Below are positions 1,546 through 60,931 of a stretch of 64,000 bases of DNA, piece after piece. Source of the stretch: Escherichia phage sutha. The stretch lies in sequence record PV245934.1; one strand, written 5' to 3'. A program made the position numbers and the translations under genes. Position 1 is the stretch's first letter, and each line of letters opens with the position of its first letter. The notes under the pieces are model-generated. The model saw nothing but the letters and a program-made list of their open reading frames with translations, did no database searches and was not told the DNA's origin.

Positions 1546-1594
1546 CCGTAGTTGATAGTTGTATAGTACCACGGAAGAACAGTCTTGTAAACAA
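1546..1594 (-). promoter_or_regulatory. early promoter cassette (-35 GTTTAC, -10 TACTAT-like, conserved leader ending GGAGGAACAGAAA-ATG)
   Basis: + strand ccgtagttgatagttgtatagtaccacggaagaacagtcttgtaaac; repeated nearly identically at 2050, 28518 and 54938. Confidence 0.55.
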
Positions 1595-1777
1595 CTTTTT
1601 TAAAAATATTCGTAATAAATGTGAATACCAACTACTACCGCTGAAACCTGTGCAACCCACCACGCACAAGCAATACGTACAGAATTCAAAATTTTCATAA
1701 TAACCTCATCACAAAAGTAAATGTTAAACAAATTACTGGAATACTAATTAACCAAACAAAACACCACCATAATGAAC

Positions 1778-2041
1778 TCATAGTTCAATCTCAATAATTT
1801 CAAGATTATTTTCTTTAATAGCTTTCTTTAAATCATCGTAAATAAGAACTTCCCAAGAATTGTTTAAATCACCATTCAACAAACGCTCTTGTTGCAATTT
1901 ATCAGTAAGATATGGTTGGTTTGATTCATATTTAGACAATCCCAATGAAATAAATGATGTTGCATCGTCAATTTCAGAATATTGTACATAAACAAATTCA
2001 CCTGTGATTTTATGTTTAACATAAAAGAATTTAAATTTCAT
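1778..2041 (-). CDS. hypothetical protein
   Basis: 87-aa ORF; ATG 2039-2041 preceded by GAGGAACAAAA leader and promoter cassette. Confidence 0.45.
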   Translation of the reverse strand: MKFKFFYVKHKITGEFVYVQYSEIDDATSFISLGLSKYESNQPYLTDKLQQERLLNGDLNNSWEVLIYDDLKKAIKENNLEIIEIEL

Positions 2042-2049
2042 TTTTGTTC

Positions 2050-2099
2050 CTCTGTAGTTGATAGTTGTATAGTACCATGGTCCTTGTAGTATGTAAACT
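2050..2099 (-). promoter_or_regulatory. early promoter cassette (repeat copy)
   Basis: + strand ctgtagttgatagttgtatagtaccatggtccttgtagtatgtaaac. Confidence 0.55.
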
Positions 2100-2114
2100 A
2101 GTTTATGAAATTTT

Positions 2115-2672
2115 TTAGATGGAAAGATACCATCCGTTGTAGTTGCTTTTTCGCACTACCTTACGAAGGTCTTCTCTATCACCAATGAACTTCGGAGTGT
2201 ACTGGATGACACCTGGATGAATTTCTTTAGTGTTGAATATAATTATACAGTCCGCGACTTGATGATTTAGAATGGGCCCTAGATTTATTCCAGAACCATA
2301 TGGATACTCTCCGCTGCATCCTGTTGTTACCGAAATCCAACGTGAGTCAGTTTGATGTGTCTTAACTTCTACACGGAGCCCACAGTATTTTGGATGTGCT
2401 AAAACATCCCATGCATATGTGTACGGATCATCGACATCTTCTTGACCTTTGTTAACATACCCGCTTAGCCAATCTGCTACAAAAAACTCTGCGTACACAG
2501 CGATACGGCATCTTTCGATAACTTCTGCCTTATCCTGATTCGGATTTTGTTTTAAAGAGTATCTTGCTGTATCAGAAATTTTGACCTTCATTTCACTAGT
2601 CAAGTCACCGTTCGATAGGGTAAATGCCGGAATCTGAAATAGTCTCTGTAAACCCGGATTCGTTTTCTGCAT
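2115..2672 (-). CDS. denB: endonuclease IV DenB
   Basis: 185-aa ORF adjacent to rIIB, same size and position as T4 denB. Confidence 0.6.
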   Translation of the reverse strand: MQKTNPGLQRLFQIPAFTLSNGDLTSEMKVKISDTARYSLKQNPNQDKAEVIERCRIAVYAEFFVADWLSGYVNKGQEDVDDPYTYAWDVLAHPKYCGLRVEVKTHQTDSRWISVTTGCSGEYPYGSGINLGPILNHQVADCIIIFNTKEIHPGVIQYTPKFIGDREDLRKVVRKSNYNGWYLSI

Positions 2673-2934
2673 TTAGACTTTCCTTTTTACCACTGAGATA
2701 AGCGTTATATACTTTAAGAGCGCCGTAATAAATTCGGTCATTTTCATCTAAAGACTCGCGGTCAAGTTCATCGAGCTCCTTTTTATCCATGACTATAACA
2801 TCATTACAGTAAAGAAACCCAAGTTTTTCGTGACCAAACTCAAATTTATTACAGTACACAATATTAGCGTGATGATTTCCGTGCAGTTTAATCTCTTTTA
2901 TGTCGGAATCACCGATATTCATACAATAAATCAT
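2605..2934 (-). CDS. hypothetical protein (overlaps denB 5' end by 68 nt)
   Basis: 109-aa ORF; overlap leaves one of the two starts uncertain. Confidence 0.35.
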   Translation of the reverse strand: MIYCMNIGDSDIKEIKLHGNHHANIVYCNKFEFGHEKLGFLYCNDVIVMDKKELDELDRESLDENDRIYYGALKVYNAYLSGKKESLNAENESGFTETISDSGIYPIER

Positions 2935-2951
2935 AATTTTTCCTTAAAACA

Positions 2952-2969
2952 AAAGGGCCGAAGCCCTTT
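2952..2969 (-). terminator. CUUCGG-type stem-loop (intercistronic hairpin, possible terminator/RNA stability element)
   Basis: + strand aaagggccgaagcccttt; transcript GGGCUUCGGCCC. Confidence 0.55.
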
Positions 2970-2972
2970 ATT

Positions 2973-3167
2973 TTACTTGAATTGTGCAATTCTTTTCTCT
3001 AGACATTCAGCATAAGATTTCATTGAGATAAACTGCGAAAGTAGCAGTTCTTGCTCAACTGTGCTAACTGTTAGAAACTTTGCGCTTTCTAAAAATTTGC
3101 TCAGTGCATTAATTTTGAGCATTAATTGATCGTATTCTTCTTTTACTCGTGCTTGATAACCTAACAT
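2973..3167 (-). CDS. hypothetical protein (64 aa)
   Basis: ORF between rIIB stop hairpin and hairpin at 2952-2969. Confidence 0.4.
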   Translation of the reverse strand: MLGYQARVKEEYDQLMLKINALSKFLESAKFLTVSTVEQELLLSQFISMKSYAECLEKRIAQFK

Positions 3168-3185
3168 AATTTTCCTTAATGTGAT

Positions 3186-3203
3186 AAGGGCCGAAGCCCT
3201 TAT
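3186..3203 (-). terminator. CUUCGG-type stem-loop overlapping rIIB stop
   Basis: + strand aagggccgaagccctta. Confidence 0.55.
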
Positions 3204-4138
3204 TTAAATTGTTCAGTAACGTCTTCAACTACTTCGTATTGGCAGGTACGCATTTTAGCATCGTTGTAATCAATCGGAATTGATACTACATCACGCGGAT
3301 GTACTTTAACTTTTACAACTCGGCTGGTTGAACTGCCAAAGTGACGAATATAAGATTTAGAACACACATGCAGACCATGAGAACAAGTTTGTGTATCATC
3401 GTCATTCACACGAGTACGTGGCATTTTAACTACTTTACCCGGACTGTTATCAAAGGTGTTTGAGTGACAGTCAAAGTAATTGCTACGAACTACTTTCCAA
3501 GCATAGAAGTAACCATCTTCTGTAATTTCAATATCGTTTGCTACCAAGAAATCAAAGAGTCGAGATACCGCTTTTTGGCTTGGGTTTTCCAACAGATTTT
3601 CCAAGAACGGAAAATAAAATTCAAAGTTTTCGCCTTTTTCCATCGAGTCAAGAATACGATCAACCAAACCAGACCGCAATTCAATATTTTGATAGAACAA
3701 GCTTCCACCTTCAATTCGAACATCGCCGGAAATATATTTTTCAACAGCGCGACGAACATTAATTTTTTGTGCCGCTTCTTCCAACTTATCCGCTACAAGC
3801 AGATTAAGAATTTCCTGGAAGTTTGAATGAGTATTAGGAGTTGCGTTATAAGTTACACCGTCAACAGTAATTGAAATGAATTTTTTAGATGCATTCCAAA
3901 TAATGTCAGATTTAGCAACTGGAGCAATAACTGCATCGCTATTAACTTTAACTGTAATATCACCGCTAATAGTAACTTTAGGGCGTTTAGCTTCTTCAGC
4001 ATTTTTCAAAACACGACGGATTGTGTCAACCGATACATCCTTCCAATAAGCTAATTCCTGCTGAGTGTAATTACCACTTGAATACAGTTTAACAATTTCA
4101 GCTTGTTCGTTTTTGGTCAGGCATTTAATATTGTACAT
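3200..4138 (-). CDS. rIIB: rIIB protein
   Basis: 312-aa ORF immediately downstream of rIIA, as in T4 (rIIB 312 aa). Confidence 0.85.
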   Translation of the reverse strand: MYNIKCLTKNEQAEIVKLYSSGNYTQQELAYWKDVSVDTIRRVLKNAEEAKRPKVTISGDITVKVNSDAVIAPVAKSDIIWNASKKFISITVDGVTYNATPNTHSNFQEILNLLVADKLEEAAQKINVRRAVEKYISGDVRIEGGSLFYQNIELRSGLVDRILDSMEKGENFEFYFPFLENLLENPSQKAVSRLFDFLVANDIEITEDGYFYAWKVVRSNYFDCHSNTFDNSPGKVVKMPRTRVNDDDTQTCSHGLHVCSKSYIRHFGSSTSRVVKVKVHPRDVVSIPIDYNDAKMRTCQYEVVEDVTEQFK

Positions 4139-6337: not shown

Positions 6338-6541
6338 TTAATTCATATTACGCTTAATAACTTCAGCAACTTCTAGTAGTTCATCTTTAGTTGCAGTGTC
6401 GGATTGAATTTTATCTCTAATATCTTTAAAGCGGTTTTTAAACTCTTCGGCTTCTCCCATATCGAAAAAGCGTTGAATGATTCTATATTCTCGATGAACT
6501 GCTTTATCAAAAAGTTCTAAATTTACTTTATATGATTTCAT
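6338..6541 (-). CDS. hypothetical protein rIIA.1
   Basis: 67-aa ORF between gene 39 and rIIA; own promoter (GTTTAC-17-TATAAT) upstream. Confidence 0.5.
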
Positions 6542-6565
6542 TTCAATATCCTCATTTGCCCAATT

Positions 6566-6597
6566 AATTATACCACATCCTTGTGGTAAAGTAAACT
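6566..6597 (-). promoter_or_regulatory. early promoter (GTTTAC-17 nt-TATAAT) for rIIA.1/rIIA/rIIB
   Basis: minus-strand reading gtttactttaccacaaggatgtggtataat. Confidence 0.6.
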
Positions 6598-8416
6598 ACT
6601 GGCTCATCCATTCTTTGCGAAGGTCAGCATTATCTCCCATGAGCATTTCAAAAAGCTCTTTCCAGTTCTCAGGAAGTTTAACAACATCATATACTGGATT
6701 TTGAATCATCTCACGATATTCAGATTTTTCCAACGAGCCAAGTCCCTTAATATAGCGGATGCTATGTTTAGGTAGAGCATCTTTGGCACTCTCATATTCA
6801 GCGACTGTATAAAACCATTCTTGTTTTTTACCGACCTGAGCGATGATTACAGGAGTTTTGACAAAGCGAATTCGTCCTTGCTCAAACAATTCTGGCCAAT
6901 TACTAAAAAATCCGAGCAGAGAAGGATAAATGCTTCCTAGACCATCATGGTCAGCATCAGTCATAATAGCAATATTATGATAATTCAAGTTTTCAGCTTT
7001 TTCACCAAGAACTAATCCAGTGATTGCGCAAATATCAAATAGTTCTTTGTTTTTAAGCATATCTGCATAAGACATACCCCAACTATTGAGAACTTTACCG
7101 CGTAATGGATAACCACCGTGAAGTTCTTTATCACGAACATCAATAAGATATCCGATAGCAGAATCACCCTCAGTCAAGAAAAGAGTAGTGTCAGCATCTT
7201 TACCACAAAGATTCGCTTTGATATGTTTATGAACCTTAGCTTTAGAAGCCTTTTTAGCTGCTTTAGTTTCTGCTGCTTTTTCTGCCGCCAATTTACGAGC
7301 CAAAGCAGCTTCAATAATCGGCATTAGAATTGCTTCATTATTTAGAATAGCACGTGAAATCTTTTTAGCATCAAGTTGAATATGACTACGAATTTCACCA
7401 AAAGGAGAAGTAAGTCGTTCTTTAGTTTGAGAATCAAATCGCATGTTTTTCATATCACGAACAAACATAACGATAGTCAAACATTCTTTAACGCGTGCTT
7501 TAGTTACATCAATTTTGAACTTACGTTTGATTTGTGGAATAAGGTCTTCACAAATATCATCCATCACACAGTCAATGTGATGGCCACCATTCTTAGTGTG
7601 AATGTTATTGACGTATGTTAATTGACGAAATCCATCCGGTGAACGACCAACCGCAATAGAACAATTTTCTTGTTCTTGAACAATAGCATGCTCATCATAT
7701 TGGCGTGCATATTTCTTAAAATTGCCCTGAACCTTTTTACCATTAAAGGTAAATTGAATATCAGGATAAACAACAGCAAGTGTCTGGAGACGATCTAGTG
7801 TAATGTCAAGATAAACCTGAGATAGCTCATTAGTTTCAAATGACATAAAATCAGGAATGAAAGTAACACGGGTTCCTTTCCATTTTCCAGGAATATCTTC
7901 CCATGATTTATTTTCCATGCCATTTGAACAACGAACTACAATATTATTTTGACCATCGCCAGTTTCACCGACAAACATCACAGAAAAAATGTTTGTCAAA
8001 CTAGAACCAACACCATTCATACCGCCAGTGACGCGTTCTTTATCATCACCGAAGTTACCACCTGCTTTTGGAATAGTCCATGCAGCAACAGGACCAGGAA
8101 TTTCTTCACCGGTAGGTGTTTTAACCATCGCCTGTGGAATACCGCGACCGTTATCTTCAACTGTTACTTGATTGTTTTTAATAGTAACATTAATTTTATT
8201 TGCGAATTTAAACTTAGTACGAATACCTTCATCTACTGAGTTATCGATAATTTCATCAATAAGCTTAACAAGACCAGGTACATACTGAACACTTTCCCAT
8301 TTACCAAACAGAAAGCGCTCATGCATTTCATTAGCTGAAGAGCCAATGTACATGCCGCTACGCTTTTTGATATGTTCAATATCGCTCAGAATTTTAATTT
8401 CATTCTTAATCATCAC
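6596..8416 (-). CDS. 39: DNA topoisomerase II large (ATPase) subunit, unsplit gp39 (covers T4 gp39 plus gp60)
   Basis: 606-aa ORF; N-terminus MIKNEIKILSDIEHIKKRSGMYIGS, GHKL ATPase motifs, C-terminal Toprim segment IAIMTDADHDGLGSIY that T4 encodes in separate gene 60. Confidence 0.9.
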   Translation of the reverse strand: MMIKNEIKILSDIEHIKKRSGMYIGSSANEMHERFLFGKWESVQYVPGLVKLIDEIIDNSVDEGIRTKFKFANKINVTIKNNQVTVEDNGRGIPQAMVKTPTGEEIPGPVAAWTIPKAGGNFGDDKERVTGGMNGVGSSLTNIFSVMFVGETGDGQNNIVVRCSNGMENKSWEDIPGKWKGTRVTFIPDFMSFETNELSQVYLDITLDRLQTLAVVYPDIQFTFNGKKVQGNFKKYARQYDEHAIVQEQENCSIAVGRSPDGFRQLTYVNNIHTKNGGHHIDCVMDDICEDLIPQIKRKFKIDVTKARVKECLTIVMFVRDMKNMRFDSQTKERLTSPFGEIRSHIQLDAKKISRAILNNEAILMPIIEAALARKLAAEKAAETKAAKKASKAKVHKHIKANLCGKDADTTLFLTEGDSAIGYLIDVRDKELHGGYPLRGKVLNSWGMSYADMLKNKELFDICAITGLVLGEKAENLNYHNIAIMTDADHDGLGSIYPSLLGFFSNWPELFEQGRIRFVKTPVIIAQVGKKQEWFYTVAEYESAKDALPKHSIRYIKGLGSLEKSEYREMIQNPVYDVVKLPENWKELFEMLMGDNADLRKEWMSQ

Positions 8417-8465: not shown

Positions 8466-8483
8466 AAAGGCCCGAAGGCCTTT
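8466..8483 (-). terminator. CUUCGG-type stem-loop after lipoprotein gene
   Basis: + strand aaaggcccgaaggccttt. Confidence 0.55.
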
Positions 8484-8743
8484 TATTTAAAACGGATAGT
8501 CGAATCCTTGAAGAATAGACCAGAACATACTGTTCCTTCTACTTTCTGCCCAGTAGGTCCAATAGCACGAAATCCAGTATGCTGGAAATCATTTTCAGAG
8601 CAACCGAACCAATTATATCCAGTGATTTCAATATTAGTAAAACCACTTGAAGACAAAACTTTAGTTGCATTATCAGCATCAGTACATCCTACTAAAGACA
8701 CTGCTAATACTAATGCTGCGATAGAACGATTAATATATTTCAT
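8483..8743 (-). CDS. putative lipoprotein
   Basis: 86-aa ORF with signal peptide and lipobox LVGC. Confidence 0.5.
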   Translation of the reverse strand: MKYINRSIAALVLAVSLVGCTDADNATKVLSSSGFTNIEITGYNWFGCSENDFQHTGFRAIGPTGQKVEGTVCSGLFFKDSTIRFK

Positions 8744-9572: not shown

Positions 9573-9842
9573 TTAATTGAACAGTGTAGCGATGCGTTTC
9601 AGAAGAGTGGCAGCACCTTTGGCGAATTTTACATCATGAAAAACAGTTTCTTCTTCCGTTACAGCACGAGCTTTAATGTTTTCACAACCCCAATTTTTAC
9701 GAACAATCTTCAAAAGCTGCAGTAAATCTTTACATTCTGCAATATCGATAACACATCCACGAGAATCTTCCATTATCGCACGATAACCGTAAGCCATACC
9801 ATAATCGTTGAAAGATTGTTCGATGATAATTAAGTTTTCCAT
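9573..9842 (-). CDS. hypothetical protein
   Basis: ORF 9573..9854 trimmed to ATG 9840-9842 preceded by TTGGAGAATAAA leader. Confidence 0.4.
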   Translation of the reverse strand: MENLIIIEQSFNDYGMAYGYRAIMEDSRGCVIDIAECKDLLQLLKIVRKNWGCENIKARAVTEEETVFHDVKFAKGAATLLKRIATLFN

Positions 9843-9865
9843 TTTATTCTCCAAGTTGTTTTCTG

Positions 9866-9900
9866 TATCAGTAGTTGATATTGATATAGTACCATAATCA
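9866..9900 (-). promoter_or_regulatory. degenerate copy of the promoter cassette (-35 not recognisable)
   Basis: + strand cagtagttgatattgatatagtaccat upstream of ORF 9573..9842. Confidence 0.3.
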
Positions 9901-9939
9901 ACTACCGATGTATATAGTTTTATGAAAAAATTTTAAACT

Positions 9940-10437
9940 TTATGCATAGCGGGCTTTGCTATAGTGTTTAATCCAACTTTCAGGAATGACTTTGTATGTT
10001 CCTAAAAATACCGCGTTGTACAACTTAACGCCATCTTCTACCCACTGATCGGTAATGTATGCACACATAGCGCGAGTACGGTGTTTTTGAACAACCCCTT
10101 CCTCATCTTCAGTAAATTCGAATTCATAAGGAGCAACGAACTTAATAGCTTGACCGAGTTTCCACTTAAAGTCTACGCCTACGTGCGAAGTATCAATCGT
10201 TTCAATTCCTTTAGCAGGAACAGCTTTCAAAAACGCAGACTCAAGAAATTTCGCACGAACATAGCCAAACTGAGGTTTAGACTTTCCATCTTTAGGAATG
10301 ATACGCACTTTTACTTCAGAATCTTCATCTTTAACGCCGTGTTTAAGCTGAATGCTTACAATTTCGACCAATTTTCCTGCTGCTTTAGAACGGGATTTAT
10401 CAGATACACGAGCAATTTCACCAATATTAATAATCAT
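9940..10437 (-). CDS. motB: MotB-like protein
   Basis: 165-aa ORF at T4 motB position; strong early promoter upstream. Confidence 0.45.
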   Translation of the reverse strand: MIINIGEIARVSDKSRSKAAGKLVEIVSIQLKHGVKDEDSEVKVRIIPKDGKSKPQFGYVRAKFLESAFLKAVPAKGIETIDTSHVGVDFKWKLGQAIKFVAPYEFEFTEDEEGVVQKHRTRAMCAYITDQWVEDGVKLYNAVFLGTYKVIPESWIKHYSKARYA

Positions 10438-11055: not shown

Positions 11056-11556
11056 TTATCTCATTTCAATAAAATCTATAAGTTCAGCATGGGATTTACG
11101 GAACATTACTTGATGTCCGCCAATGATAACTTGGTCATCTGGCACTTCGTATACAGCAAGATAAAATCCTTTAGAAGATAATTCTTCACGCTCTTCTCGT
11201 GTGAACCATCTCATCATATCATATTCACTAGCGAAAGCAAAATGATAAAGAGCTATAAACCATCCTGGAATATGATATTCTACTCCAACATAATCTTTCT
11301 TGAACTTAGTATTAATTACTATATTAGCGTTTTTAACTAATAGTTTATCTTCATGTGGTACAGGAATTCTTTTATTATCATCGCTATGATGCATAAAATT
11401 AGGTCTACTATAACCTACACGTAATAGCCACTCTTCGCTCCATGAATCTATTATACTCCTGTACGGCGTTATTTGAACACAAAGATTTCGACGTATTGTT
11501 ATAGCATCTTCATAATCAAGAATACTAAACGATGATTCAACACGATAAATTTTCAT
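11056..11556 (-). CDS. hypothetical protein (motB.2 position)
   Basis: ORF 11056..11595 trimmed to ATG 11554-11556 (SD GAGGA) because the upstream ATG lies inside the promoter. Confidence 0.4.
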   Translation of the reverse strand: MKIYRVESSFSILDYEDAITIRRNLCVQITPYRSIIDSWSEEWLLRVGYSRPNFMHHSDDNKRIPVPHEDKLLVKNANIVINTKFKKDYVGVEYHIPGWFIALYHFAFASEYDMMRWFTREEREELSSKGFYLAVYEVPDDQVIIGGHQVMFRKSHAELIDFIEMR

Positions 11557-11580
11557 TTTATTATCCTCAGTAGCTATGGT

Positions 11581-21990: not shown

Positions 21991-22283
21991 TATTCACCTA
22001 CCACTTCAGCGATGATATTTTTATTATTGAAGTTTTTATCACAATACAGAACGTAATTATACTGCATTACACCACCAGACTTAAGCTGTTTTTGTACTTC
22101 AGCTTTCATTTCAGGGCGATCACGCTCAACGATATTCATAATATCTGCTTCAATCTGAGTTTCAACCTCAGTCTGATCTGCGGTCATAGACCATTCACAC
22201 AAATCTTTATCATAACCTGCCATAGCAGGCTGAGCAGCACAAGAAGCCAAAGCAAAAATTGCAGCAAAAACAAATTTTTTCAT
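21990..22283 (-). CDS. sp: Spackle (Sp) periplasmic protein
   Basis: 97-aa ORF with signal peptide MKKFVFAAIFALASCAAQPAMA; size and position as T4 sp (61.3). Confidence 0.7.
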   Translation of the reverse strand: MKKFVFAAIFALASCAAQPAMAGYDKDLCEWSMTADQTEVETQIEADIMNIVERDRPEMKAEVQKQLKSGGVMQYNYVLYCDKNFNNKNIIAEVVGE

Positions 22284-22304
22284 GATAATCTCCTCAGTAG
22301 TTTA

Positions 22305-22342
22305 TGTTTATATAGTATCTCAATTTTCAACAAAAGTAAACA
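22305..22342 (-). promoter_or_regulatory. early promoter upstream of sp
   Basis: -35 gtttac at 22336-22341 (RC), -10 region atactatataaac. Confidence 0.5.
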
Positions 22343-22343
22343 C

Positions 22344-22601
22344 TTATTTTAAAACTTCTGCATAATCACATGTTACAAACTGTTTCTCTAACTTGACGAT
22401 TTTACGAAAGTATCTTTTGCATTGACGAATCTGTCGCTTCGTAGGGCGCACAGCAAACTTAATAAATTCCACTCGACCAAATGGAGGACTTTCTTCTGCT
22501 GGAATATCTAACACCAATTCCCACGTATCTGCAACAAGTGCTTTGAATTGAGTATTTTTCCTGACATTATACGGGGTAGGTTTAAATAAAACAATATGCA
22601 T
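22344..22601 (-). CDS. hypothetical protein 61.4
   Basis: ORF 22344..22643 trimmed to ATG 22599-22601 (SD GAGGA) just after dmd stop. Confidence 0.4.
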   Translation of the reverse strand: MHIVLFKPTPYNVRKNTQFKALVADTWELVLDIPAEESPPFGRVEFIKFAVRPTKRQIRQCKRYFRKIVKLEKQFVTCDYAEVLK

Positions 22602-28261: not shown

Positions 28262-28498
28262 TCAAATACAAGTAGTAATTACTCCAGTAGTGCTTACACA
28301 GATATTACCTAATTGAACACCCAGCGTTCCATTAGTATTCATATGAAGATTATCATCAATTTTTGTTGATACTTTACCATTCATGTGAATAACAGTATTA
28401 GATTCAATCACATTCTGAGTATCATTTTCAATATCAATAAATGGAACAGCTGCTAATGCAACTAAACACACTGCTAAGCAACCATAAACAATTTTCAT
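28262..28498 (-). CDS. hypothetical secreted protein
   Basis: ORF 28262..28510 trimmed to ATG 28496-28498 behind TTGGAGAATAAA leader; signal-peptide-like N-terminus. Confidence 0.4.
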   Translation of the reverse strand: MKIVYGCLAVCLVALAAVPFIDIENDTQNVIESNTVIHMNGKVSTKIDDNLHMNTNGTLGVQLGNICVSTTGVITTCI

Positions 28499-28514
28499 TT
28501 TATTCTCCAAATCC

Positions 28515-28566
28515 GTATCAGTAGTTGATAGTTGTATAGTACCATAGAAGAACAGGGATGTAAACA
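28515..28566 (-). promoter_or_regulatory. early promoter cassette (repeat copy)
   Basis: + strand cagtagttgatagttgtatagtaccatagaagaacagggatgtaaac. Confidence 0.55.
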
Positions 28567-28652
28567 GTTTTGTGAAAAAATTTTTAGGGAATCCAAAGGG
28601 TCCAGAATCATCTCTTTTTCATAAGTATAGATTTATATTACTTGTATGAAAA

Positions 28653-39913: not shown

Positions 39914-39919
39914 TTAATA

Positions 39920-54398: not shown

Positions 54399-54926
54399 TT
54401 ATGCGAGTACCGTCTTTAACCGTTCTTCAAACTTCCGAAGAGTATTTTGGCGTTCAGCTCTTTGCTTTTTGTAAGTTTCAATACGCTCTGAAATGAGAGT
54501 GTATCGTTCATTTACTGATTCTTTCATAAAATCAGGAATTTCACGAGAAGCTTTAATCTCATCAAATTTATCAATAACAGCTTGCTCTTCAGCAATTAAG
54601 TTATCATACATCAAAATATCTTTCTTGATGAACTCAATATCTTCTTGAGTTACACGAGATAATTTAGATGCTTTATCCTTTTTGTACTGTTCGTTAGTAT
54701 CACGAGACCAGTGTAATGTACGATTTTTATTCGTATTCTTGTAAATTTCTACAATACCAATCTCATCAATAATAACGATCCAATTCCAACGGGATTTGTA
54801 AATTTGTCCTCCATCAACAGTGATTTCACCTCCGATTGAGATGTCATTAAAGAACTTGCTTTGTGCTTCAGATTTAAATTTACCATCGTTGTAATTTACC
54901 AAGTTGAAAATATCTTTAGCGTTCAT
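54399..54926 (-). CDS. hypothetical protein with C-terminal coiled coil
   Basis: 175-aa ORF behind promoter cassette and GGAGGAACAGAAA leader. Confidence 0.45.
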   Translation of the reverse strand: MNAKDIFNLVNYNDGKFKSEAQSKFFNDISIGGEITVDGGQIYKSRWNWIVIIDEIGIVEIYKNTNKNRTLHWSRDTNEQYKKDKASKLSRVTQEDIEFIKKDILMYDNLIAEEQAVIDKFDEIKASREIPDFMKESVNERYTLISERIETYKKQRAERQNTLRKFEERLKTVLA

Positions 54927-54937
54927 TTTCTGTTCCT

Positions 54938-54984
54938 CCGTAGTTGATAGTTGTATAGTACCACAGAGGAACAGTCTTGTAAAC
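54938..54984 (-). promoter_or_regulatory. early promoter cassette (repeat copy)
   Basis: + strand ccgtagttgatagttgtatagtaccacagaggaacagtcttgtaaac. Confidence 0.55.
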
Positions 54985-54986
54985 CA

Positions 54987-55301
54987 CTAAAAGAAACTTC
55001 TTTCACAATTTTTTCCACTGAACCAAGCGCTCACTGCTTTCTTAGTCTCAGGAGCAGTGTTATCCATAAACCATTCAAAGGCAGCCTTTTTATGATTCTG
55101 GAGGGCTTCTCGGGCTTTAATCTGCTCACGGTCTATTAACACTAACATATGAGCCTTTCTTGTCACCAGGGGCTTCTTATGATTTTTTGAATATTCCCAA
55201 TCATTTGTCCATCGCATCGTTGTTGCGAACTGAAATACTGCTTCTTTAATTTTAGTTTCGTAAATTTCACGAGCCTTTGAGTATAACATCATTACCTCCA
55301 T
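54987..55301 (-). CDS. hypothetical protein (104 aa)
   Basis: ORF in array. Confidence 0.4.
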   Translation of the reverse strand: MEVMMLYSKAREIYETKIKEAVFQFATTMRWTNDWEYSKNHKKPLVTRKAHMLVLIDREQIKAREALQNHKKAAFEWFMDNTAPETKKAVSAWFSGKNCERSFF

Positions 55302-55391: not shown

Positions 55392-56360
55392 TTATTTCAG
55401 AAGAGTAACCTCAGCGATTTCTTGCCAACCGTTTTTGTCGGTCATAATAAAGTCAGCAAGATACAGAGCAGTACGCAGTGAAACATTGCGTAAACGATTA
55501 ACATTGACTTTCATCCATGATAATGCTTTATAAGTTTCTTCATCAGAAAGACCGCGCTTTTGCATCATGTCGGTTGAAAGAATAACATCTTCAACCCTGA
55601 CCATAATTTCTTCATTAGTGTGAACACCCAAATCCAAATAAACTGAGCGGGACACTAATGCTTGTAAATGTGGAGCAAGTTTAGTACCACGGTCTAATTC
55701 GCGGTCAATGTCAACGTTTGTGATAAAAACAATCGTTCCTTTAAATTCAAACTCACGCTCAATGCCTTTTTCTTCTAAGTAAGAAGATGCGGTGCTCCAG
55801 CAGACTTTACGGGTCTCTCCAGTGTCCAGAGCAGCTTTCAGAAGATTAAGAATGTCCATATCAGAGAAAACATCCACATCATCAATCAAAAGGACAGAAT
55901 TCTCTTCACGATTATTCCAAAGCTGTTCATAAAGACCGATACCAGAGATTTTACCATTAATGCTTTTATATTCAATGTATCCATTATCATTTGCTTTATT
56001 CAAAGCTTTATCTAAAGAATACGTTTTACCAATACCCGCCGCACCAGAGATAATCAATGAACGAATATTTCCGTTAATAATACCATTCGTCATCATTCCC
56101 ATAACATTAAATCTTTTATTAATGCGGGTTTTCATATCTTCATATGATTCTTTAACTTCTTCAACTTTTACACCATCATATGAAATATCTGATTTGTAAA
56201 CCCAAACACCGCGACGTTTACCGTCAATTTCAACAAAAACTTTACCATCTCCTTGTGCATCTACCGGAGCATTATCTGGGAACCATTCGCCTAAGAGCTC
56301 AAAAGTTCCAGAGATTTCTTTACCGAAGTAGATACCCTTATTGATAGTTACAGTTTTCAT
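55392..56360 (-). CDS. AAA+ family ATPase
   Basis: ORF 55392..56372 trimmed to ATG 56358-56360 (TTGGAGAATAAA leader); Walker A GAAGIGKT, Walker B LLIDDVD. Confidence 0.55.
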   Translation of the reverse strand: MKTVTINKGIYFGKEISGTFELLGEWFPDNAPVDAQGDGKVFVEIDGKRRGVWVYKSDISYDGVKVEEVKESYEDMKTRINKRFNVMGMMTNGIINGNIRSLIISGAAGIGKTYSLDKALNKANDNGYIEYKSINGKISGIGLYEQLWNNREENSVLLIDDVDVFSDMDILNLLKAALDTGETRKVCWSTASSYLEEKGIEREFEFKGTIVFITNVDIDRELDRGTKLAPHLQALVSRSVYLDLGVHTNEEIMVRVEDVILSTDMMQKRGLSDEETYKALSWMKVNVNRLRNVSLRTALYLADFIMTDKNGWQEIAEVTLLK

Positions 56361-56384
56361 TTTATTCTCCAATTTTACATTTGT

Positions 56385-56426
56385 TTTGATAGGGTAATAG
56401 TATCACACTACTACCCTGCTGTAAAC
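56385..56426 (-). promoter_or_regulatory. early promoter (cassette variant) upstream of AAA+ ATPase gene
   Basis: + strand ttgatagggtaatagtatcacactactaccctgctgtaaac. Confidence 0.45.
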
Positions 56427-56429
56427 AAT

Positions 56430-56693
56430 TTATTTTAATGTTTGCCAAATTTTTACTGCTTCGCGACGAGATACTTCTACGGCGCCAAGTTCTATAGCTT
56501 TTTGGCGTCGCCGAGCGTGTAAGTCATAATGTTTAATGCGTTTATCTTGAAACCAAGAACGTTTCATTCCTATTGCTTCTGCCATTTCGTGAAGCTCTTC
56601 AATATCTCCATCAGTGAACATATGACAATTTTTAGTTGGATGACCGCGAAGTTTCCATCCATGATTCATTAAAACATCTACGTAAACTGTCAT
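56430..56693 (-). CDS. hypothetical protein (87 aa)
   Basis: ORF in array. Confidence 0.4.
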   Translation of the reverse strand: MTVYVDVLMNHGWKLRGHPTKNCHMFTDGDIEELHEMAEAIGMKRSWFQDKRIKHYDLHARRRQKAIELGAVEVSRREAVKIWQTLK

Positions 56694-56839
56694 TGATTCT
56701 TCTCCAAATAAGTTTCGATAATTTTCTGGGCGAGATAAACCGCGTTATCTTCAGTTGCGTCTTCTAAGAAACTTTCAAAACACTCTGAAATTTCTTCTGT
56801 ATCAATCAACTTTTTTACTTCAATTGGTGTAATTTTCAT
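56690..56839 (-). CDS. hypothetical protein (49 aa)
   Basis: Hand translation MKITPIEVKKLIDTEEISECFESFLEDATEDNAVYLAQKIIETYLEKNQ; ATGA overlap with next gene; below ORF-track cutoff. Confidence 0.35.
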   Translation of the reverse strand: MKITPIEVKKLIDTEEISECFESFLEDATEDNAVYLAQKIIETYLEKNQ

Positions 56840-56865
56840 TTTGTTTTCCGTTTAAGTGTTTGTTT

Positions 56866-56906
56866 TGATAGTTGTATAGTACCATAAAGCTTTATGCTTG
56901 TAAACC
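56866..56906 (-). promoter_or_regulatory. early promoter cassette (partial copy)
   Basis: + strand ttgatagttgtatagtaccataaagctttatgcttgtaaac. Confidence 0.5.
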
Positions 56907-56937
56907 ATTTTGTGAAAAAATTTTGAAATAAAAAAAA

Positions 56938-56953
56938 GGAGCCCGAAGGCTCC
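56938..56953 (-). terminator. stem-loop with UUCG tetraloop and U-tract after NTase-fold gene
   Basis: + strand aaaaaaaaggagcccgaaggctcc. Confidence 0.6.
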
Positions 56954-56956
56954 CTA

Positions 56957-57970: not shown

Positions 57971-58437
57971 TCAGCCTTATATTCAATAACAGGACATACT
58001 TTAGCTTTACGCGCTTTTAAAAATTCGACGATAATAGACTTCTTGGGTTGAATAGGAGGTAAACCTTTATACGCCCTATCAATATTTTCTACATGTAAAG
58101 CATAATCCTTTTTCCATTTATAATCTTTATAATCTTTATATTTTTCATGCAGTTGTGCAGGAATAACAAATGAACCAATAATAAGTAAAACAAGCAAAAT
58201 AGCAAGTATAAATGCTGATGGAATAAGAGTCCATAAACTACCAAAAATAAGCCATTTCTGCATGATTTCTGCGCAGATGATAGTTAGACCTGCTAGTATA
58301 GTACATCCGAAAAAAGAAACGAAAAATGTAGGAATAACAATAGACCAAAAATACGCGCACAGTGTCTTAGGTCGTTTCCATTCATCATTAAACATTTTGA
58401 ATAATTTATAGTGCCAAGAGCTTTCATTAATAATCAT
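57967..58437 (-). CDS. hypothetical integral membrane protein
   Basis: 156-aa ORF with several hydrophobic segments. Confidence 0.45.
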   Translation of the reverse strand: MIINESSWHYKLFKMFNDEWKRPKTLCAYFWSIVIPTFFVSFFGCTILAGLTIICAEIMQKWLIFGSLWTLIPSAFILAILLVLLIIGSFVIPAQLHEKYKDYKDYKWKKDYALHVENIDRAYKGLPPIQPKKSIIVEFLKARKAKVCPVIEYKAE

Positions 58438-58439
58438 AA

Positions 58440-58961
58440 TTATCCTTTCATTGAAGGTGTAACAGTTGTTAAATACTTAATCATAGCTTCAGCTTCTGAT
58501 TTTGATAATGAAATTTCTCCATTGTTTTGACGAATAGAAATAAAATCCGGATGACGGTCACCACCAGCTTTTAAAACACACATATAAGTATCAGTTTCAT
58601 CTTCAATATCTGAAATGATTGAAGCAGTTCCACATGAATGTGGTTTTTGATAAATCAATGCAGCTTTTCTTCCACCGTTTGACTGCTCATAGGCTTTTAA
58701 TACATCAAGCAAATCAGTTCTTTTATCAATAGCTAAGATGTTGTTTTCATCTTCAATGTTAAATCCTTCGGATACTTCATAAAGTGTCACCCATAAATCG
58801 CCAATATCAATGACAGCATTCACCTTTCCATGATTTTCAAGAGCATTACAAATTTTCTTGATTTCGTCATAACTCATTTTAATAATATCATCTCCTTGAA
58901 TAAGGAAGATGTCATTTTTAAATTTAACACGAATTAAACCACTTTCACTTGAAATAAACAT
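58440..58961 (-). CDS. hypothetical protein (paralog of next ORF)
   Basis: 173-aa ORF; shares FNIE and YL..V.P.M motifs with 58968..59501. Confidence 0.4.
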   Translation of the reverse strand: MFISSESGLIRVKFKNDIFLIQGDDIIKMSYDEIKKICNALENHGKVNAVIDIGDLWVTLYEVSEGFNIEDENNILAIDKRTDLLDVLKAYEQSNGGRKAALIYQKPHSCGTASIISDIEDETDTYMCVLKAGGDRHPDFISIRQNNGEISLSKSEAEAMIKYLTTVTPSMKG

Positions 58962-58967
58962 ATTTCC

Positions 58968-59501
58968 TCACTTTGAAATCATAGTTGGAATGACAGAATC
59001 AAGATAAGTCTTTAGCGCAATAGCTTCGTCTTTGGTAAATGTGACAATATGCGATCGAAAATCATCAATTTGGCGAATAGTTAAGACATCTCCCTCTTCA
59101 TAGCATTTTGATACATTTAAAAGAGTTTCATCATTCTGATTGCAAGCGTTAGTAATAATAGCATTGCAATTTTTAAGCCATTTTAAACTACGTTTTCTTT
59201 CATTAGAATAATAAAAATATTTAATCTTAGCTATAAAACTATCCCAATGGATAACTGATAAGCATATTGACTCGCTTTCAATATTAAATCCTGGGCATGA
59301 AGAATAAAAATGAATTTTATGCTCATCATTAATGCTTACAATTTTATCAGTATAAGGATTTTCAATTTGGGTTAAATGAATGATTTCACTAGGCGTAAAA
59401 TATAGCATATCGTCTTCTTGTGTCAAACGATACATATTATTTACTTTTTCTATAGCCAATTCACCAAAAAGTGAACTAACTTCTAATACTAATCGTTTCA
59501 T
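58968..59501 (-). CDS. hypothetical protein (paralog of previous ORF)
   Basis: ORF 58968..59522 trimmed to ATG 59499-59501 (SD AAGGA). Confidence 0.4.
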   Translation of the reverse strand: MKRLVLEVSSLFGELAIEKVNNMYRLTQEDDMLYFTPSEIIHLTQIENPYTDKIVSINDEHKIHFYSSCPGFNIESESICLSVIHWDSFIAKIKYFYYSNERKRSLKWLKNCNAIITNACNQNDETLLNVSKCYEEGDVLTIRQIDDFRSHIVTFTKDEAIALKTYLDSVIPTMISK

Positions 59502-59502
59502 A

Positions 59503-59781
59503 TTAATCCTTTTTATTGGCACGAATTTGTTCTAAAATTTTAGAGTATTCCTTTGTATCAGATTTACGTACAATCGATACACAATAAGGCATACTGTCGG
59601 TGTCTTTTATAAAGCGTTCCAAATGACACTCTAATAAAATTTCTGGATTATAAATCGTGTACATCAAATTACCTGTTGCTCCACGATATTGACAGATTTC
59701 TACTGATTGAACACCATTCCATAATTTTGTTAAGACCAAATCACCTACTTCTAATTTAGGAAAGCCCATGTTATTCACCAA
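59503..59781 (-). CDS. hypothetical protein (92 aa)
   Basis: ORF in array. Confidence 0.4.
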   Translation of the reverse strand: MVNNMGFPKLEVGDLVLTKLWNGVQSVEICQYRGATGNLMYTIYNPEILLECHLERFIKDTDSMPYCVSIVRKSDTKEYSKILEQIRANKKD

Positions 59782-59956
59782 TTAAAGTTTCAATATAAGA
59801 ATCAAGATTTACTTTAGCTTCTTCCATAAGAGTTTTGTATTTAATCTTGTTAGCATGTCCGGAGAAAGCTGATTCATCAATAATTGTTGATGTATGAACA
59901 GCTTTACTATACGTCTCAATTAATTCTCTTAATTTAAAAGCCTGCTCACTTGTCAT
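59771..59956 (-). CDS. hypothetical protein (61 aa)
   Basis: ORF in array. Confidence 0.35.
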   Translation of the reverse strand: MTSEQAFKLRELIETYSKAVHTSTIIDESAFSGHANKIKYKTLMEEAKVNLDSYIETLIGE

Positions 59957-60060
59957 TACATACTCCTCTGAATCATATCAATAATGTTGTTCACCAGATT
60001 ATAAGTAAACAAAGGATAATTATATTGAATCATCACATACACAACAAACAAAATTTTCAT
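59956..60060 (-). CDS. hypothetical small hydrophobic protein (34 aa)
   Basis: Hand translation MKILFVVYVMIQYNYPLFTYNLVNNIIDMIQRSM; SD GGAGAAG; TAATG overlap with next gene. Confidence 0.3.
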   Translation of the reverse strand: MKILFVVYVMIQYNYPLFTYNLVNNIIDMIQRSM

Positions 60061-60084
60061 TCTCTTCTCCTTGGCAGTTGACAA

Positions 60085-60119
60085 GATTACTATACCATAA
60101 CCTTGTCAACTTGTAAACC
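60085..60119 (-). promoter_or_regulatory. early promoter
   Basis: minus-strand reading gtttacaagttgacaaggttatggtatagtaat. Confidence 0.5.
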
Positions 60120-60283
60120 GTTAAATGACGTTTTCAATAAAATTCTGGAGTTTTGTGTGAGCATCAACCATGATTTTCATTTCTTCTTTTGCGAAAGCTG
60201 TACCTCTTTCCCGAGCAGAATACTCATAGTCAGAAACTGCATTAGCATATTCTTCAATTAGCTTCATTAAAAACATCTGCTTT

Positions 60284-60478
60284 TCAGTTTTCATTATTCC
60301 ACCTAATCATTTCAAGATATTGAACTAACTTAGCTTTAGATTTATCCAAATCCTTTTTAGCTGCTGCTATACCTTCGTATGAATATCCTTCACAATGCTC
60401 AACTGCCAATTGGTATGAATCTATTTCAACATCACGTACTAATTTAATGATTTTTTCAAACTGTTCGCGTGTCAGCAT
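60284..60478 (-). CDS. hypothetical protein (64 aa)
   Basis: ORF in array. Confidence 0.35.
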   Translation of the reverse strand: MLTREQFEKIIKLVRDVEIDSYQLAVEHCEGYSYEGIAAAKKDLDKSKAKLVQYLEMIRWNNEN

Positions 60479-60480
60479 AC

Positions 60481-60720
60481 TTAAACTCTCGTATTGTGAT
60501 CGATAATTTCATCAAGAAACATATCTAACGCTTCTAAAGCATTATCAACTTTAGCTTCAAGTTCTTCAGCGCCTTTATTTGCAATGCCTGTCGAAAACCA
60601 AGCAAAGTCACTAAGTTCCTCGTCTGCTTTGCGAATTAAAGCTACCAATTCTTTAATTTTATCTGCTTGTTCGATACTAATCATTATTCCACCACATATG
60701 AAAGAGAGAATATTGCACAC
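60481..60720 (-). CDS. hypothetical protein (79 aa)
   Basis: ORF in array. Confidence 0.35.
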
Positions 60721-60917
60721 GCCATATGAGTTGCAGCTTCATCACACATATCATAACGTTTCTTAAGAAGTTCTACAAGTTCTTCACTGGTAACTTCATC
60801 CATGTCGACGAAAAAATCACCATTAATGATGACGTAGATATTTCCTTCTTGATTAAGTGCTTCAATTTTCATGATGTTCTCCTCTTTATCTGATAGTTGT
60901 ATAGTATCACAGCTCAA
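60684..60917 (-). CDS. hypothetical protein (77 aa)
   Basis: ORF with early promoter upstream. Confidence 0.35.
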
Positions 60918-60931
60918 ATGGAAAGTAAACC
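60888..60931 (-). promoter_or_regulatory. early promoter cassette (partial copy)
   Basis: + strand ctgatagttgtatagtatcacagctcaaatggaaagtaaac. Confidence 0.5.

Follow-up and report, generated by a model that had tools for sequence, protein, structure and literature searches.

The window analysed here, a 64,000-nt stretch of Escherichia phage sutha (PV245934.1), is 96-97% identical to many Tequatrovirus genomes and its gene order is colinear with that of T4 from ac to ~62 kb; judged by its sequence, it is the early region of a Tequatrovirus (T4-like phage), with the early genes on the minus strand. On that strand lie nine copies of a cassette ~95-120 nt long, all in the same orientation, each running from an AT-rich upstream region (about -60) through the ATG of the gene that follows (Table 1). 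The copies, designated by the positions of their -35 elements, sit in the ndd, cef, sp, imm and nrdC.x-mobD.x regions, and none of the nine falls in the replication-gene block at 29-54 kb.

Table 1. Promoter cassettes (labelled by the position of the -35 element) and the accessory ORFs next to them.
Feature	Label	Coordinates	Strand	Details
Cassette before ndd.4 homolog	1591	1532..1625	-	-35 TTTACA 1591-1586; spacer agactgttcttccgtgg; -10 TACTAT 1568-1563; leader acaactatcaactacGGAGGaacagaaa; ATG 1534-1532; T4 ortholog, -35 at 166806
Accessory 87-aa ORF, phrog_2390		1778..2041	-	Homolog of PST ORF268
Cassette downstream of denB, before 87-aa ORF	2097	2039..2130	-	-35 2097-2092; -10 2074-2069; short leader; ATG 2041-2039; T4 ortholog at 167085
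Accessory 89-aa ORF, phrog_3720		9573..9842	-	
Variant cassette before 89-aa ORF, upstream of cef	9914	9840..9945	-	-35 TATACA; -10 TACTAT 9891-9886; long leader ending GGAGAATAAAA; ATG 9842-9840
Diverged cassette before sp (spackle)	22340	22281..22370	-	TTTACT-N17-TACTAT, then ataaacataaactactGAGGAGattatc-ATG
Accessory 78-aa ORF, phrog_4189		28262..28498	-	Hydrophobic N-terminus
Cassette downstream of gene 43, before 78-aa ORF and imm.1	28564	28496..28600	-	-35 28564-28559; -10 28541-28536; long leader ending GGAGAATAAAA; ATG 28498-28496
Cassette before nrdC.8	54983	54924..55015	-	T4 ortholog at 53942
Variant cassette before nrdC.10	56425	56358..56455	-	TTTACA gcAGGGTAgtagtgtga TACTAT TACCCTatcaaaac; leader ending GGAGAATAAAA
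Accessory ORFs of 49 aa (phrog_6888) and 87 aa (DUF4031)		56430..56839	-	Between two direct cassettes
Cassette before two-ORF insert	56904	56837..56955	-	UUCG-loop terminator upstream, 56955-56936; palindromic spacer
Partial-match cassette before mobD.5	60929	60870..60963	-	UUCG-loop terminator upstream, 60963-60946; TTTACT-N17-TACTAT, then acaactatcagataaaGAGGAGaacatc-ATG; T4 ortholog at 58779

A probable family of paralogous early promoters

An earlier note on this DNA had listed near-verbatim repeats of a ~50-bp module, four of them full and four partial, and had proposed that a formal repeat search and alignment be used as a check. These analyses recovered the copies. The minus-strand 37-mer TGGTACTATACAACTATCAACTACGGAGGAACAGAAA occurs exactly at 1535-1571 and 54927-54963 and with two mismatches at 2041-2077, and 100 shuffles gave no match (0 expected). 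Over 67 nt, the segments 1530-1596 and 54922-54988 are 96% identical (64/67), and the repeats found at 1539, 2045, 9862, 22288, 28512, 54922, 56852, and 60868 fall in families D1-D3 and D11. When at most one mismatch is allowed, the core TACTAT-N5-TATCAA has eight minus-strand matches (1552, 2058, 9875, 28525, 54944, 56386, 56865, and 60890), which are precisely the four full and four partial copies of the note; 1.1 matches are expected and none of 100 shuffles reaches nine. A ninth core match, on the plus strand, was rejected as unrelated to the family. All eight listed copies thus stand, as does the repeat itself, but the list left out the diverged member before sp and the module is longer than the ~50 bp that had been stated.

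Every copy has a T4 ortholog, these lying upstream of ndd.4, ndd.6, cef, sp, imm.1, nrdC.8, nrdC.10, and mobD.5, and the motA promoter of T4 also belongs to the family. A 96-mer search found 2849 places in 573 phage records (~5 per genome), nearly all of them from Tequatrovirus.

The copies might be alike solely because strong T4 early promoters are selected toward one extended consensus, with no exchange between them and no role in recombination, and T4 early promoters do share a consensus that goes beyond -35 and -10 (UP/-35/TGn/-10; Hinton 2010, PMC2988021). Identity within the family, however, runs across non-consensus spacer positions and through 28-37 nt of leader, whereas ten other early promoters in the window work with spacers and leaders unrelated to those of the cassettes: over the first 20 transcribed bases (20 nt after the -10), identity is 70-100% inside the family and 10-55% between the family and these ten. 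The start-site box CTATCAA is conserved also in EcL8g, a phage of another genus (Karamvirus), so that part of the similarity between copies is due to functional constraint rather than exchange. Cassette identity nevertheless exceeds, as far as these comparisons go, what promoter selection alone explains, and selection as the sole cause is considered improbable, also in the light of the mosaic sites described below.

Promoter architecture, stem-loops and RegB motifs

The cassettes share a layout of an AT-rich upstream region, GTTTAC(A/T), a 17-nt spacer, TGn, TACTAT, the start-site box CTATCAA, a short, unstructured leader of 22-37 nt, a Shine-Dalgarno sequence and, usually, ATGAAA. Eight of the nine fit the promoter pattern TTTACW-N17-TAYWAT exactly, the exception being 9914 (reported as the copy at 9866 in the earlier note), whose degenerate -35, TATACA, is common to T4, BCH953P4, and ES21. 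The 30 nt upstream are 70-87% A+T in eight copies and 57% in 60929, where the terminator fills that space. An independent promoter scan flags TGn at 54983, 56425, and 56904, and the combination of UP element, -35, TGn, and -10 with positional orthology to the upstream regions of T4 early genes places the copies among the T4 early promoters. All nine end in the Shine-Dalgarno sequence and start codon of the gene that follows, and the layout agrees with the proposal of the earlier note that promoter, leader, and Shine-Dalgarno sequence are supplied as a unit before a small ORF.

Only some six of the nine copies show a clear stem-loop, which takes more than one form. UUCG terminators lie upstream of 56904 and 60929, so that an intrinsic terminator directly upstream of the promoter is not general (2/9 copies). 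At 1591 the spacer, an anti-Shine-Dalgarno sequence, pairs with the Shine-Dalgarno sequence in a 14-bp stem, a stem of the same length is formed with that sequence at 54983 by the spacer agactgttcctctgtgg, and at 9914 the spacer GGTAGTTGAT pairs with the leader segment ATCAACTAC. The duplex energies of these three promoter-spanning helices stand out from spacer shuffles (p = 0.002), their fold z-scores are -5 to -6.7, and they are followed by AAAATG with no T run. At 56425 a hairpin enclosing the -10 finds support only in the whole-segment fold (z of -3.05); the spacer-shuffle test is not significant (p = 0.19). Fold and duplex analysis gave no convincing stem-loop at 2097, 22340, or 28564, and at gathering thresholds the window as a whole matched none of the Rfam covariance models.

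The strong cleavage-site consensus of RegB is GGAGRAYARAA (PMC3014915). It has only three exact matches in the 64 kb (9842-9852, 28498-28508, and 56360-56370) and all three are Shine-Dalgarno sites of cassettes (GGAGAATAAAA). The remaining cassettes have GGAG or GAGGAG in the Shine-Dalgarno sequence and do not match the full consensus.

The conservation of the initial transcribed segment ACAACTATCAACTAC reaches well past the elements contacted by polymerase, which would fit a cis-regulatory operator or RNA element through which a phage factor switches off or tunes this subset of promoters together. The mechanism by which T4 early promoters are shut off is stated to be unresolved (PMC2988021, PMC3014915), and the subset includes the motA promoter. 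No binding factor is known, however, the discriminator (acaac, taccc, or agacc) is free to vary from one ortholog to another, and the start box is common to Karamvirus promoters outside the family. Paralogy together with a start-site preference explains the pattern, and shared regulation of this kind is judged quite unlikely.

Accessory genes and exchange at the cassettes

Indels were compared among four Tequatrovirus genomes, those of the window phage, T4, BCH953P4, and ES21, and flanking ORFs were compared across relatives as the earlier note had proposed; presence/absence differences adjoin five of the nine copies. At the ndd.6 site T4 lacks the 87-aa ORF apart from a remnant of eight codons (MKIAEIEL), and T4 homology stops right after ATCAACTAC. 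The T4 copy there has an imm.1-type leader and, from imm.1 itself, the first 12 nt of the coding region. This ORF occurs as two alleles of ~51% amino-acid identity, each accompanied by its own leader type, and 236 of 497 records cover at least 80% of the query, consistent with the window's insert being present. In the nrdC.10 slot two direct cassettes enclose a 460-nt insert; in its place T4 and ES21 have one hybrid cassette, and BCH953P4 carries another ORF. Of 582 related phage records, 117 show coverage of at least 80% for that query, again consistent with presence of the insert. The 78-aa ORF of the imm.1 slot is absent from T4 and BCH953P4, and the junction there is marked only by a repeated 8-nt ATGAAAAT. 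For the cef slot, where T4, BCH953P4, and ES21 share a ~200-nt deletion inside the 89-aa ORF, a cassette crossover was rejected, the difference being an internal microhomology deletion.

The cassettes are themselves mosaic. At the ndd.4 site, spacer type and discriminator type occur in all four combinations among seven genomes, the multi-base patches taccc/acaac and cttccg/cctctg being reassorted at this one site, and the apparent donor is the nrdC.8 copy. This reassortment and the imm.1 codons in the T4 ndd.6 cassette both count against consensus selection as the sole cause. What is in its favor is that indel enrichment at the cassettes is not significant: four events were observed at cassette-preceded gene starts against 2.6 expected (P = 0.26), and the indel association of the family (5/9) differs from that of the other early promoters (1/10) with p = 0.057, also not significant. 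About 25 of 30 indel events among the four genomes have no cassette at either end, and many of the cassette-free events involve homing-endonuclease genes.

Another alternative is that the cassettes are attachment sites of an integron-like mobile system, in which a dedicated recombinase moves ORF mini-circles. Mini-circles of such elements were detected in RB49/phi1 and the possibility was raised on that occasion (Arbiol et al. 2010, PMC2839356), and a direct cassette lies on either side of the nrdC.10 insert. Against this, the same study found no integrase or recombinase apart from the machinery of general T4 recombination, the breakpoints vary by site (cassette core, ATGAAAAT, or inside an ORF) with no fixed crossover site, and in every genome examined the accessory ORFs are all at orthologous sites, none having been seen at a cassette elsewhere. 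Such a system is regarded as highly improbable. General recombination at the repeats is a different matter, and the claim of the earlier note that they are its substrates gains backing, at the sequence level, from the breakpoints inside cassettes and from the mosaic cassettes. Its term "mobile" is supported for gain, loss, and replacement in situ but not for movement between sites.

Proposed mode of action

Very probably the repeats make up one sub-family of the T4-type early promoters and are carried on ~100-nt cassettes, which are paralogs that exchange patches of sequence and serve as crossover points for accessory ORFs. Following the T4 paradigm, host sigma-70 RNA polymerase would fire the cassette promoters straight after infection, with transcription expected to start at the A of CTATCAA. 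The resulting leader of 22-37 nt would, by analogy, give efficient translation of the first small gene, and in the three copies that carry the strong RegB consensus, cleavage would be predicted to stop expression again within minutes. The upstream terminator of some copies, or the promoter-spanning hairpin of others, would insulate the gene from read-through transcripts. Near-identity would be maintained because paralogous cassettes keep swapping short patches via homologous recombination or gene conversion, and their homology in direct orientation would provide the crossover points at which related phages lose, gain, or replace small accessory ORFs.

Comparison with known systems

The cassettes resemble the T4 early promoters (PMC2988021) in their UP-like region, GTTTAC -35, TGn extended -10, and 17-nt spacing, and in being placed before immediate-early genes, each copy being the positional ortholog of a T4 site. 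They differ in that the sub-family also shares spacer, start region, and leader. The GGAGAATAAAA of three cassettes fits the strong-site consensus of RegB exactly (Uzan and Miller 2010, PMC3014915) and is a candidate cleavage site, while the short-leader type GGAGGAACAGAAA departs from the full consensus. The helices at 1591, 54983, and 11612 (14-17 bp, in which the 5' arm precedes the start site and the 3' arm lies over the Shine-Dalgarno sequence) are reminiscent of the translational control of T4 e, soc, 49, and I-TevI by a hairpin that contains an internal promoter. With the 5' arm so placed, only read-through transcripts would be masked; the masking is a prediction here, and the internal promoter is late in the T4 genes and early here.

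The conserved promoter/leader elements of the internal-protein (IP) loci in T-even phages (Repoila et al. 1994, discussed by Arbiol 2010, PMC2839356) likewise combine a T4 early promoter with weak AT-rich stem-loops, and shuffling of small genes is associated with both. The IP loci are located outside the window, and in one IMG/VR locus (L008) a family member whose hairpin encloses the -10 stands before an IP-type gene (MKTYQEFIAE...). Morons and integron gene cassettes are comparable as small accessory genes that bring or receive their own promoter, and sometimes a terminator, and are gained or lost as a unit; unlike integron gene cassettes, the present ones are not known to have an integrase or attC-type site, and exchange is apparently by general homologous recombination at a repeated regulatory sequence.

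The closest counterpart is the PeSL or "promoter-early stem-loop" element described for the T4/PST pair with the consensus TTTACW-N17-TAYWAT (Comeau et al. 2014, PMC4122927). Fig. 6A of that study covers the ndd slot, which in the window has the 1591 and 2097 copies on its two sides. PeSLs (PMC2839356, PMC4122927) are composite elements that unite a sigma-70-type early promoter with an AT-rich region and a stem-loop, together with a Shine-Dalgarno sequence and a start codon. Like the cassettes, they stand in front of small ORFs of unknown function in plastic regions, close by indels that distinguish near relatives. In contrast to the PeSL drawn for PST, the upstream terminator stem-loop is found in just 2/9 copies here, 4/9 having a promoter-spanning hairpin and 3/9 no convincing stem-loop. 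Mini-circles and promoter and terminator activity are features of the published elements, the cassettes of the window being known from sequence. The consensus fit, the shared ndd slot, and the PST ORF268 homolog all support the likeness to T4-type promoter-early stem-loop cassettes that the earlier note had drawn. Its observation was correct and is not new, because the module had already been described as a recombination cassette (Arbiol 2010; Comeau 2014): the cassettes match the PeSL elements.

The early promoter cassettes as a sequence family

The promoter and leader module described in an earlier note as four full and four partial copies is recovered at the same eight sites by its core, TACTAT-N5-TATCAA, which with at most one mismatch occurs eight times on the minus strand against 1.1 expected, and an independent repeat search groups positions 1539, 2045, 9862, 22288, 28512, 54922, 56852, and 60868. 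The 37-mer, a minus-strand repeat quoted in that note, is exact at 1535-1571 and 54927-54963 and has two mismatches at 2041-2077, while none of 100 shuffles matched, and the region 1530-1596 is 96% identical to 54922-54988 over 67 nt. A ninth and more diverged member lies at ∼22281-22370 in front of sp. Hence the module is real, but the ∼50 bp first assigned to it is too short, as each cassette spans ∼95-120 nt, starting in AT-rich sequence ahead of the -35 and extending as far as the start codon.

Promoter calls in this work rest on the T4-specific pattern and on orthology in place of a generic sigma-70 scan, which was not discriminating (51 sites vs. 43.7 expected), and they give ∼19 good early promoters in the window. 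The listed copies (named here by the -35 position on the minus strand) share 70-100% identity with each other and 10-55% with the other ten early promoters over the 20 nt that follow the -10, except at 56904 and 56425, where the common sequence is limited to the first 10-13 nt after the -10. Judged by sequence, the cassettes are a true sub-family and more than a promoter consensus. Near-identical pairs of early promoters are also found outside the family, at 6567-6598/51975-52006 (97%) and 22807-22844/60081-60118 (89%), and paralogous promoter families are therefore general in the sutha genome. The spacers of these two extra pairs differ from those of the reported family. Searches of the window against Rfam and for tRNAs gave no match.

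Each cassette begins with an AT-rich region, often containing aaaaattttttcacaaaac, and G-TTTAC(A/T), continues with a spacer of 17 nt that has TGG or TGA at its end, then TACTAT, five variable bases, and TATCAA, and ends with the leader, the Shine-Dalgarno sequence, and ATG (most commonly ATGAAA). T4 early promoters are laid out in the same way, with UP, -35, TGn, and -10 elements together with extra conserved regions (Hinton, 2010, PMC2988021). From standard spacing, transcription is predicted to start at the A of CTATCAA, giving a predicted 5' UTR of ∼22 nt with the short leader (...ACGGAGGAACAGAAA-ATG) and of ∼30-37 nt with long leaders (e.g., ...ACTGATACGGATTTGGAGAATAAA-ATG). Three long leaders, at 9842, 28498, and 56360, have GGAGAATAAAA at their ends, and no other sequence in the window matches GGAGRAYARAA, the consensus of strong sites for the RegB endoribonuclease in the ribosome-binding regions of early genes (PMC3014915). 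Only two copies are directly preceded by a canonical terminator (UUCG loop plus T run), one at 56955-56936 and one at 60963-60946.

Genomic setting, orthologs, and genes served

The first 8 kb and the 20-44 kb region of the window match hundreds of Tequatrovirus genomes at 96-97% identity over nearly their full length, and by blastn the window is colinear with T4 (NC_000866), from position 1 at T4 165384 (gene ac) to 64000 at ∼T4 62047, through the rIIB/rIIA origin. All of its prereplicative genes are on the minus strand. A positional T4 ortholog was found for every cassette copy, and the family also includes the T4 motA promoter (163672). A query with a 96-nt cassette matched 2849 places in 573 phage records, or about five per genome; almost all of these records are Tequatrovirus, and the matches in a few other T4-like genera are weak. 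The genes served directly are small and mostly of unknown function.

Cassette copies and GGGCTTCGGCCC hairpins in the window (minus strand), with T4 orthologs and predicted folds of the segment from -35 to ATG
Feature	Window position (-35 or span)	T4 -35	T4 downstream gene	Served directly in window	Fold, kcal/mol (z)
Cassette	1591	166806	ndd.4	ndd.4 homolog	-22.7 (-6.4)
Cassette	2097	167085	ndd.6	87-aa ORF (phrog_2390), then ndd.6 and ndd.5	
Cassette	9914	6629	cef	89-aa ORF (phrog_3720) before cef	-19.5 (-5.1)
Cassette	22340	20108	sp	sp	
Cassette	28564	27079	imm.1	78-aa ORF (phrog_4189), hydrophobic N-terminus, before imm.1	
Cassette	54983	53942	nrdC.8	nrdC.8	-23.2 (-6.7)
Cassette	56425	55383 (single hybrid cassette)	nrdC.10	nrdC.10	-16.4 (-3.1)
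Cassette	56904	55383 (same hybrid)	nrdC.10	49-aa ORF and 87-aa DUF4031 protein	
Cassette	60929	58779	mobD.5	mobD.5	
Hairpin	2952-2975				
Hairpin	3185-3208				
Hairpin	8466-8489				
Hairpin	31438-31461				
Hairpin	33385-33408				
Hairpin	38695-38718				
Hairpin	42334-42357				

Several other features of the window were observed. The interval 19938-19959 holds 20 nt where T4 has ∼0.9 kb including dam and BCH953P4 and ES21 have ∼1.45 kb, and sutha appears to be without a Dam methyltransferase gene at the usual place. Most large differences from T4 lie at homing-endonuclease or intron sites (6931-6996, 19009-19380, 25788-26736, 39904-39929, 44734-45575, 46829-46832, and 57971-58943): the gene 60/mobA split of the topoisomerase gene, mobB, and the nrdD intron with I-TevII are absent, and other sequence takes the place of segF, mobC, mobD, and the region of segA and b-gt. 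At 2687-2881, 37934-38527, 41481-41740, and 59500-59944 the window has insertions, each seen against at least two of the genomes T4, BCH953P4, and ES21 and none bordered by an early-promoter cassette. The seven GGGCTTCGGCCC hairpins, with A/T runs on either side, look like intrinsic terminators with a UUCG tetraloop that are reused between genes.

Indels and exchange at the cassettes

Comparison of the window with T4, BCH953P4, and ES21 revealed ∼30 distinct indel or replacement events, four of which touch five family cassettes. In the window, a 460-nt insert of two ORFs at the nrdC.10 site lies between two direct cassettes (56904 and 56425), while T4 and ES21 have one cassette, the 5' part of which is that of the 56904 copy (terminator, palindromic spacer, and ACAACTATCA) and the 3' part a long leader that runs into nrdC.10. 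In BCH953P4 the site is occupied by a different ORF. The Karamvirus phage EcL8g has the same two ORFs and a downstream cassette, and the two-cassette state is therefore old; at least 80% query coverage of this slot in 117 of 582 related records is consistent with carriage of the insert. The cassette-flanked accessory ORF at 56430-56693 encodes the DUF4031 protein (Pfam E=1.5e-21), which has 93% protein identity to the EcL8g copy at the same site.

At the ndd.6 site, homology to T4 breaks right after ...ATCAACTAC and returns at the last codons of ORF87 (the 87-aa ORF), and in its place T4 has an 8-codon remnant, MKIAEIEL, the leader and first 12 nt (ATGAAAATCGCT) of which are those of the imm.1 cassette and gene. 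This sequence pattern points to an origin of the T4 site by ectopic exchange between two cassettes. Query coverage of at least 80% in 236 of 497 records is consistent with an ORF87-type insert, and in other records the slot is empty or has different inserts; PST has ORF269 and ORF268, the latter a homolog of ORF87. At the imm.1 site the 78-aa ORF is present or absent, with the junction at a repeated ATGAAAAT. The fourth event, at the cef site, is a ∼200-nt deletion in T4, BCH953P4, and ES21. It adjoins the cassette but is internal to the 89-aa ORF, and a cassette crossover was rejected as its cause. In T4, 6482-6653 (locus L002) and 167008-167039 (L001) are unannotated intergenic deletion remnants of ORFs that the window has in full: ahead of cef, a stub of the 89-aa ORF with a frameshift and, before ndd.6, the 8 codons with a start copied from imm.1.

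Exchange on a finer scale was seen when cassettes from four genomes and from IMG/VR, where a scan gave 21 loci from about eight contigs that served as extra genomes, were sorted by downstream gene. Spacer (cttccg or cctctg) and discriminator (taccc or acaac) are combined in all four possible ways at the ndd.4 site, one in T4, ES21, and locus L021, another in the window, a third in BCH953P4, and the fourth in L023, while the nrdC.8 cassette, 53 kb away, always has cctctg with acaac. Since these patches are multi-base and ∼15 nt apart, the pattern indicates probable short-tract conversion between dispersed copies. ORF87 itself has two alleles with ∼51% amino-acid identity at the same site, that of the window and BCH953P4 always after the short leader and the other (ES21, PST, and four IMG/VR loci) always after the long leader. 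The tie of allele to leader type argues for joint replacement of leader and ORF, the crossover on the upstream side falling in the conserved core. The alleles were compared between window 1778-2041 and ES21, PST, and IMG/VR L011, L020, L021, L023, and L025; both end in EIEL and overlap ndd.6 at ATGA, which suggests that the whole of ORF87 may have been replaced between conserved flanks.

The view that the repeats are substrates for recombination is supported within limits. Breakpoints and mosaics support the cassettes as homology that may be used for loss, gain, allele replacement, and conversion, but the data do not show that they are dominant in plasticity or that ORFs hop between sites. No cassette is found at the ends of ∼25 of the 30 events, many of which involve homing-endonuclease genes (mobA/gene 60, segF, segA, mobB, mobC, I-TevII, and mobD), and none of the accessory ORFs was found at a non-orthologous cassette site in the genomes compared. 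Four events at family cassettes compare with 2.6 expected at random over 105 minus-strand gene starts (P=0.26), and events occur at 5/9 family promoters vs. 1/10 other early promoters (p=0.057); enrichment is suggestive or null depending on the null model, and none is claimed.

Promoters within predicted hairpins

When the segment from the -35 to the ATG is folded, copies 54983, 1591, 9914, and 56425 are predicted to form very stable hairpins with the -10 in the loop, and the Shine-Dalgarno sequence makes up the 3' arm in copies 1591 and 54983. The stems differ in sequence (AGGGTA/TACCCT, GGTCT/AGACC, AGGGCT/AGCCCT, and GGTATGAG/CTCATACC), and the same design is present at the non-family promoters 11612 and 10510. 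Folding gave no convincing stem-loop at 2097, 22340, or 28564. A shuffled-spacer test applied to the window, T4, BCH953P4, ES21, and EcL8g gave p<=0.01 in each genome for 5-7 of 16-24 early promoters. Pairing of spacer and leader has similar medians at promoter-preceded and other gene starts (Mann-Whitney p=0.39), and only the extreme tail (<=-15 kcal/mol) differs, with 4/18 promoter-preceded genes vs. 2/87 others (p=0.008). No compensatory changes, and so no evidence of covariation, were found in the 54983 stem across Tequatrovirus orthologs, where T4 and ES21 have broken outer pairs and the 9 bp of the inner stem do not vary. Spacers complementary to the downstream leader and Shine-Dalgarno sequence were observed at 11556-11612, 1534-1591, 54926-54983, and 22785-22843 (minus strand), with duplexes of -18 to -25 kcal/mol.

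Because no T runs follow the promoter hairpins, they are read as masks for read-through RNA, not as terminators, and we infer that they would act in this way. Control by a late promoter within a hairpin is known for e, soc, 49, and I-TevI and is an analog of the cassette hairpins. A possible though on balance doubtful reading is that the cassettes are RegB-limited units for expression from their own promoter only, the dispersed copies of which evolve in concert. About one third of early promoters would be built inside a hairpin in which the spacer is complementary to the bases immediately following the -10 and, in the strongest (1591, 54983, and 11612), pairs with the Shine-Dalgarno sequence itself. 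Transcripts initiated at the cassette would be open to ribosomes and to RegB, while in read-through transcripts begun upstream a 14-17 bp helix would sequester the ribosome-binding site. Hairpin and RegB-consensus Shine-Dalgarno sequence would together form a self-contained unit giving a short burst of expression, and short-tract gene conversion across >50 kb would keep the copies in concert. If true, this would explain how such a unit can be inserted in front of any small ORF.

Comparison with known elements

The likeness to the promoter-early stem-loop (PeSL) elements of T4-type phages, which the earlier note had drawn, holds for the promoter, the AT-rich region, the Shine-Dalgarno sequence and ATG, the location, and the association with indels, and only partly for the stem-loop. 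Stem-loops between or overlapping the promoter boxes are PeSL sub-classes, and analogous T4 early-promoter elements are present at the IP loci (Arbiol et al., 2010, PMC2839356). The PeSLs of T4 and PST have the same promoter consensus as the window cassettes, and the published ndd slot, with T4 ndd.4/.5 vs. PST ORF268/269 (Comeau et al., 2014, PMC4122927, Fig. 6A), is the window interval between the 2097 and 1591 copies. The observation is therefore a correct rediscovery, at orthologous sites, of a published class of element; it is confirmed, and its interpretation is supported.

The cassettes illustrate how small genes new to T4-like phages are brought under the immediate-early programme, and how a repeated regulatory sequence can offer a site of crossover at which genes are lost or gained and alleles replaced. 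The crossover idea has been published before for T4-type phages, the ndd locus included, and the window is a further example and not a new principle. The additions to the PeSL model are modest and could refine it: short patches reassort between cassettes 53 kb apart, an ORF allele and its leader type travel together, and some copies have an anti-Shine-Dalgarno sequence in the promoter spacer.
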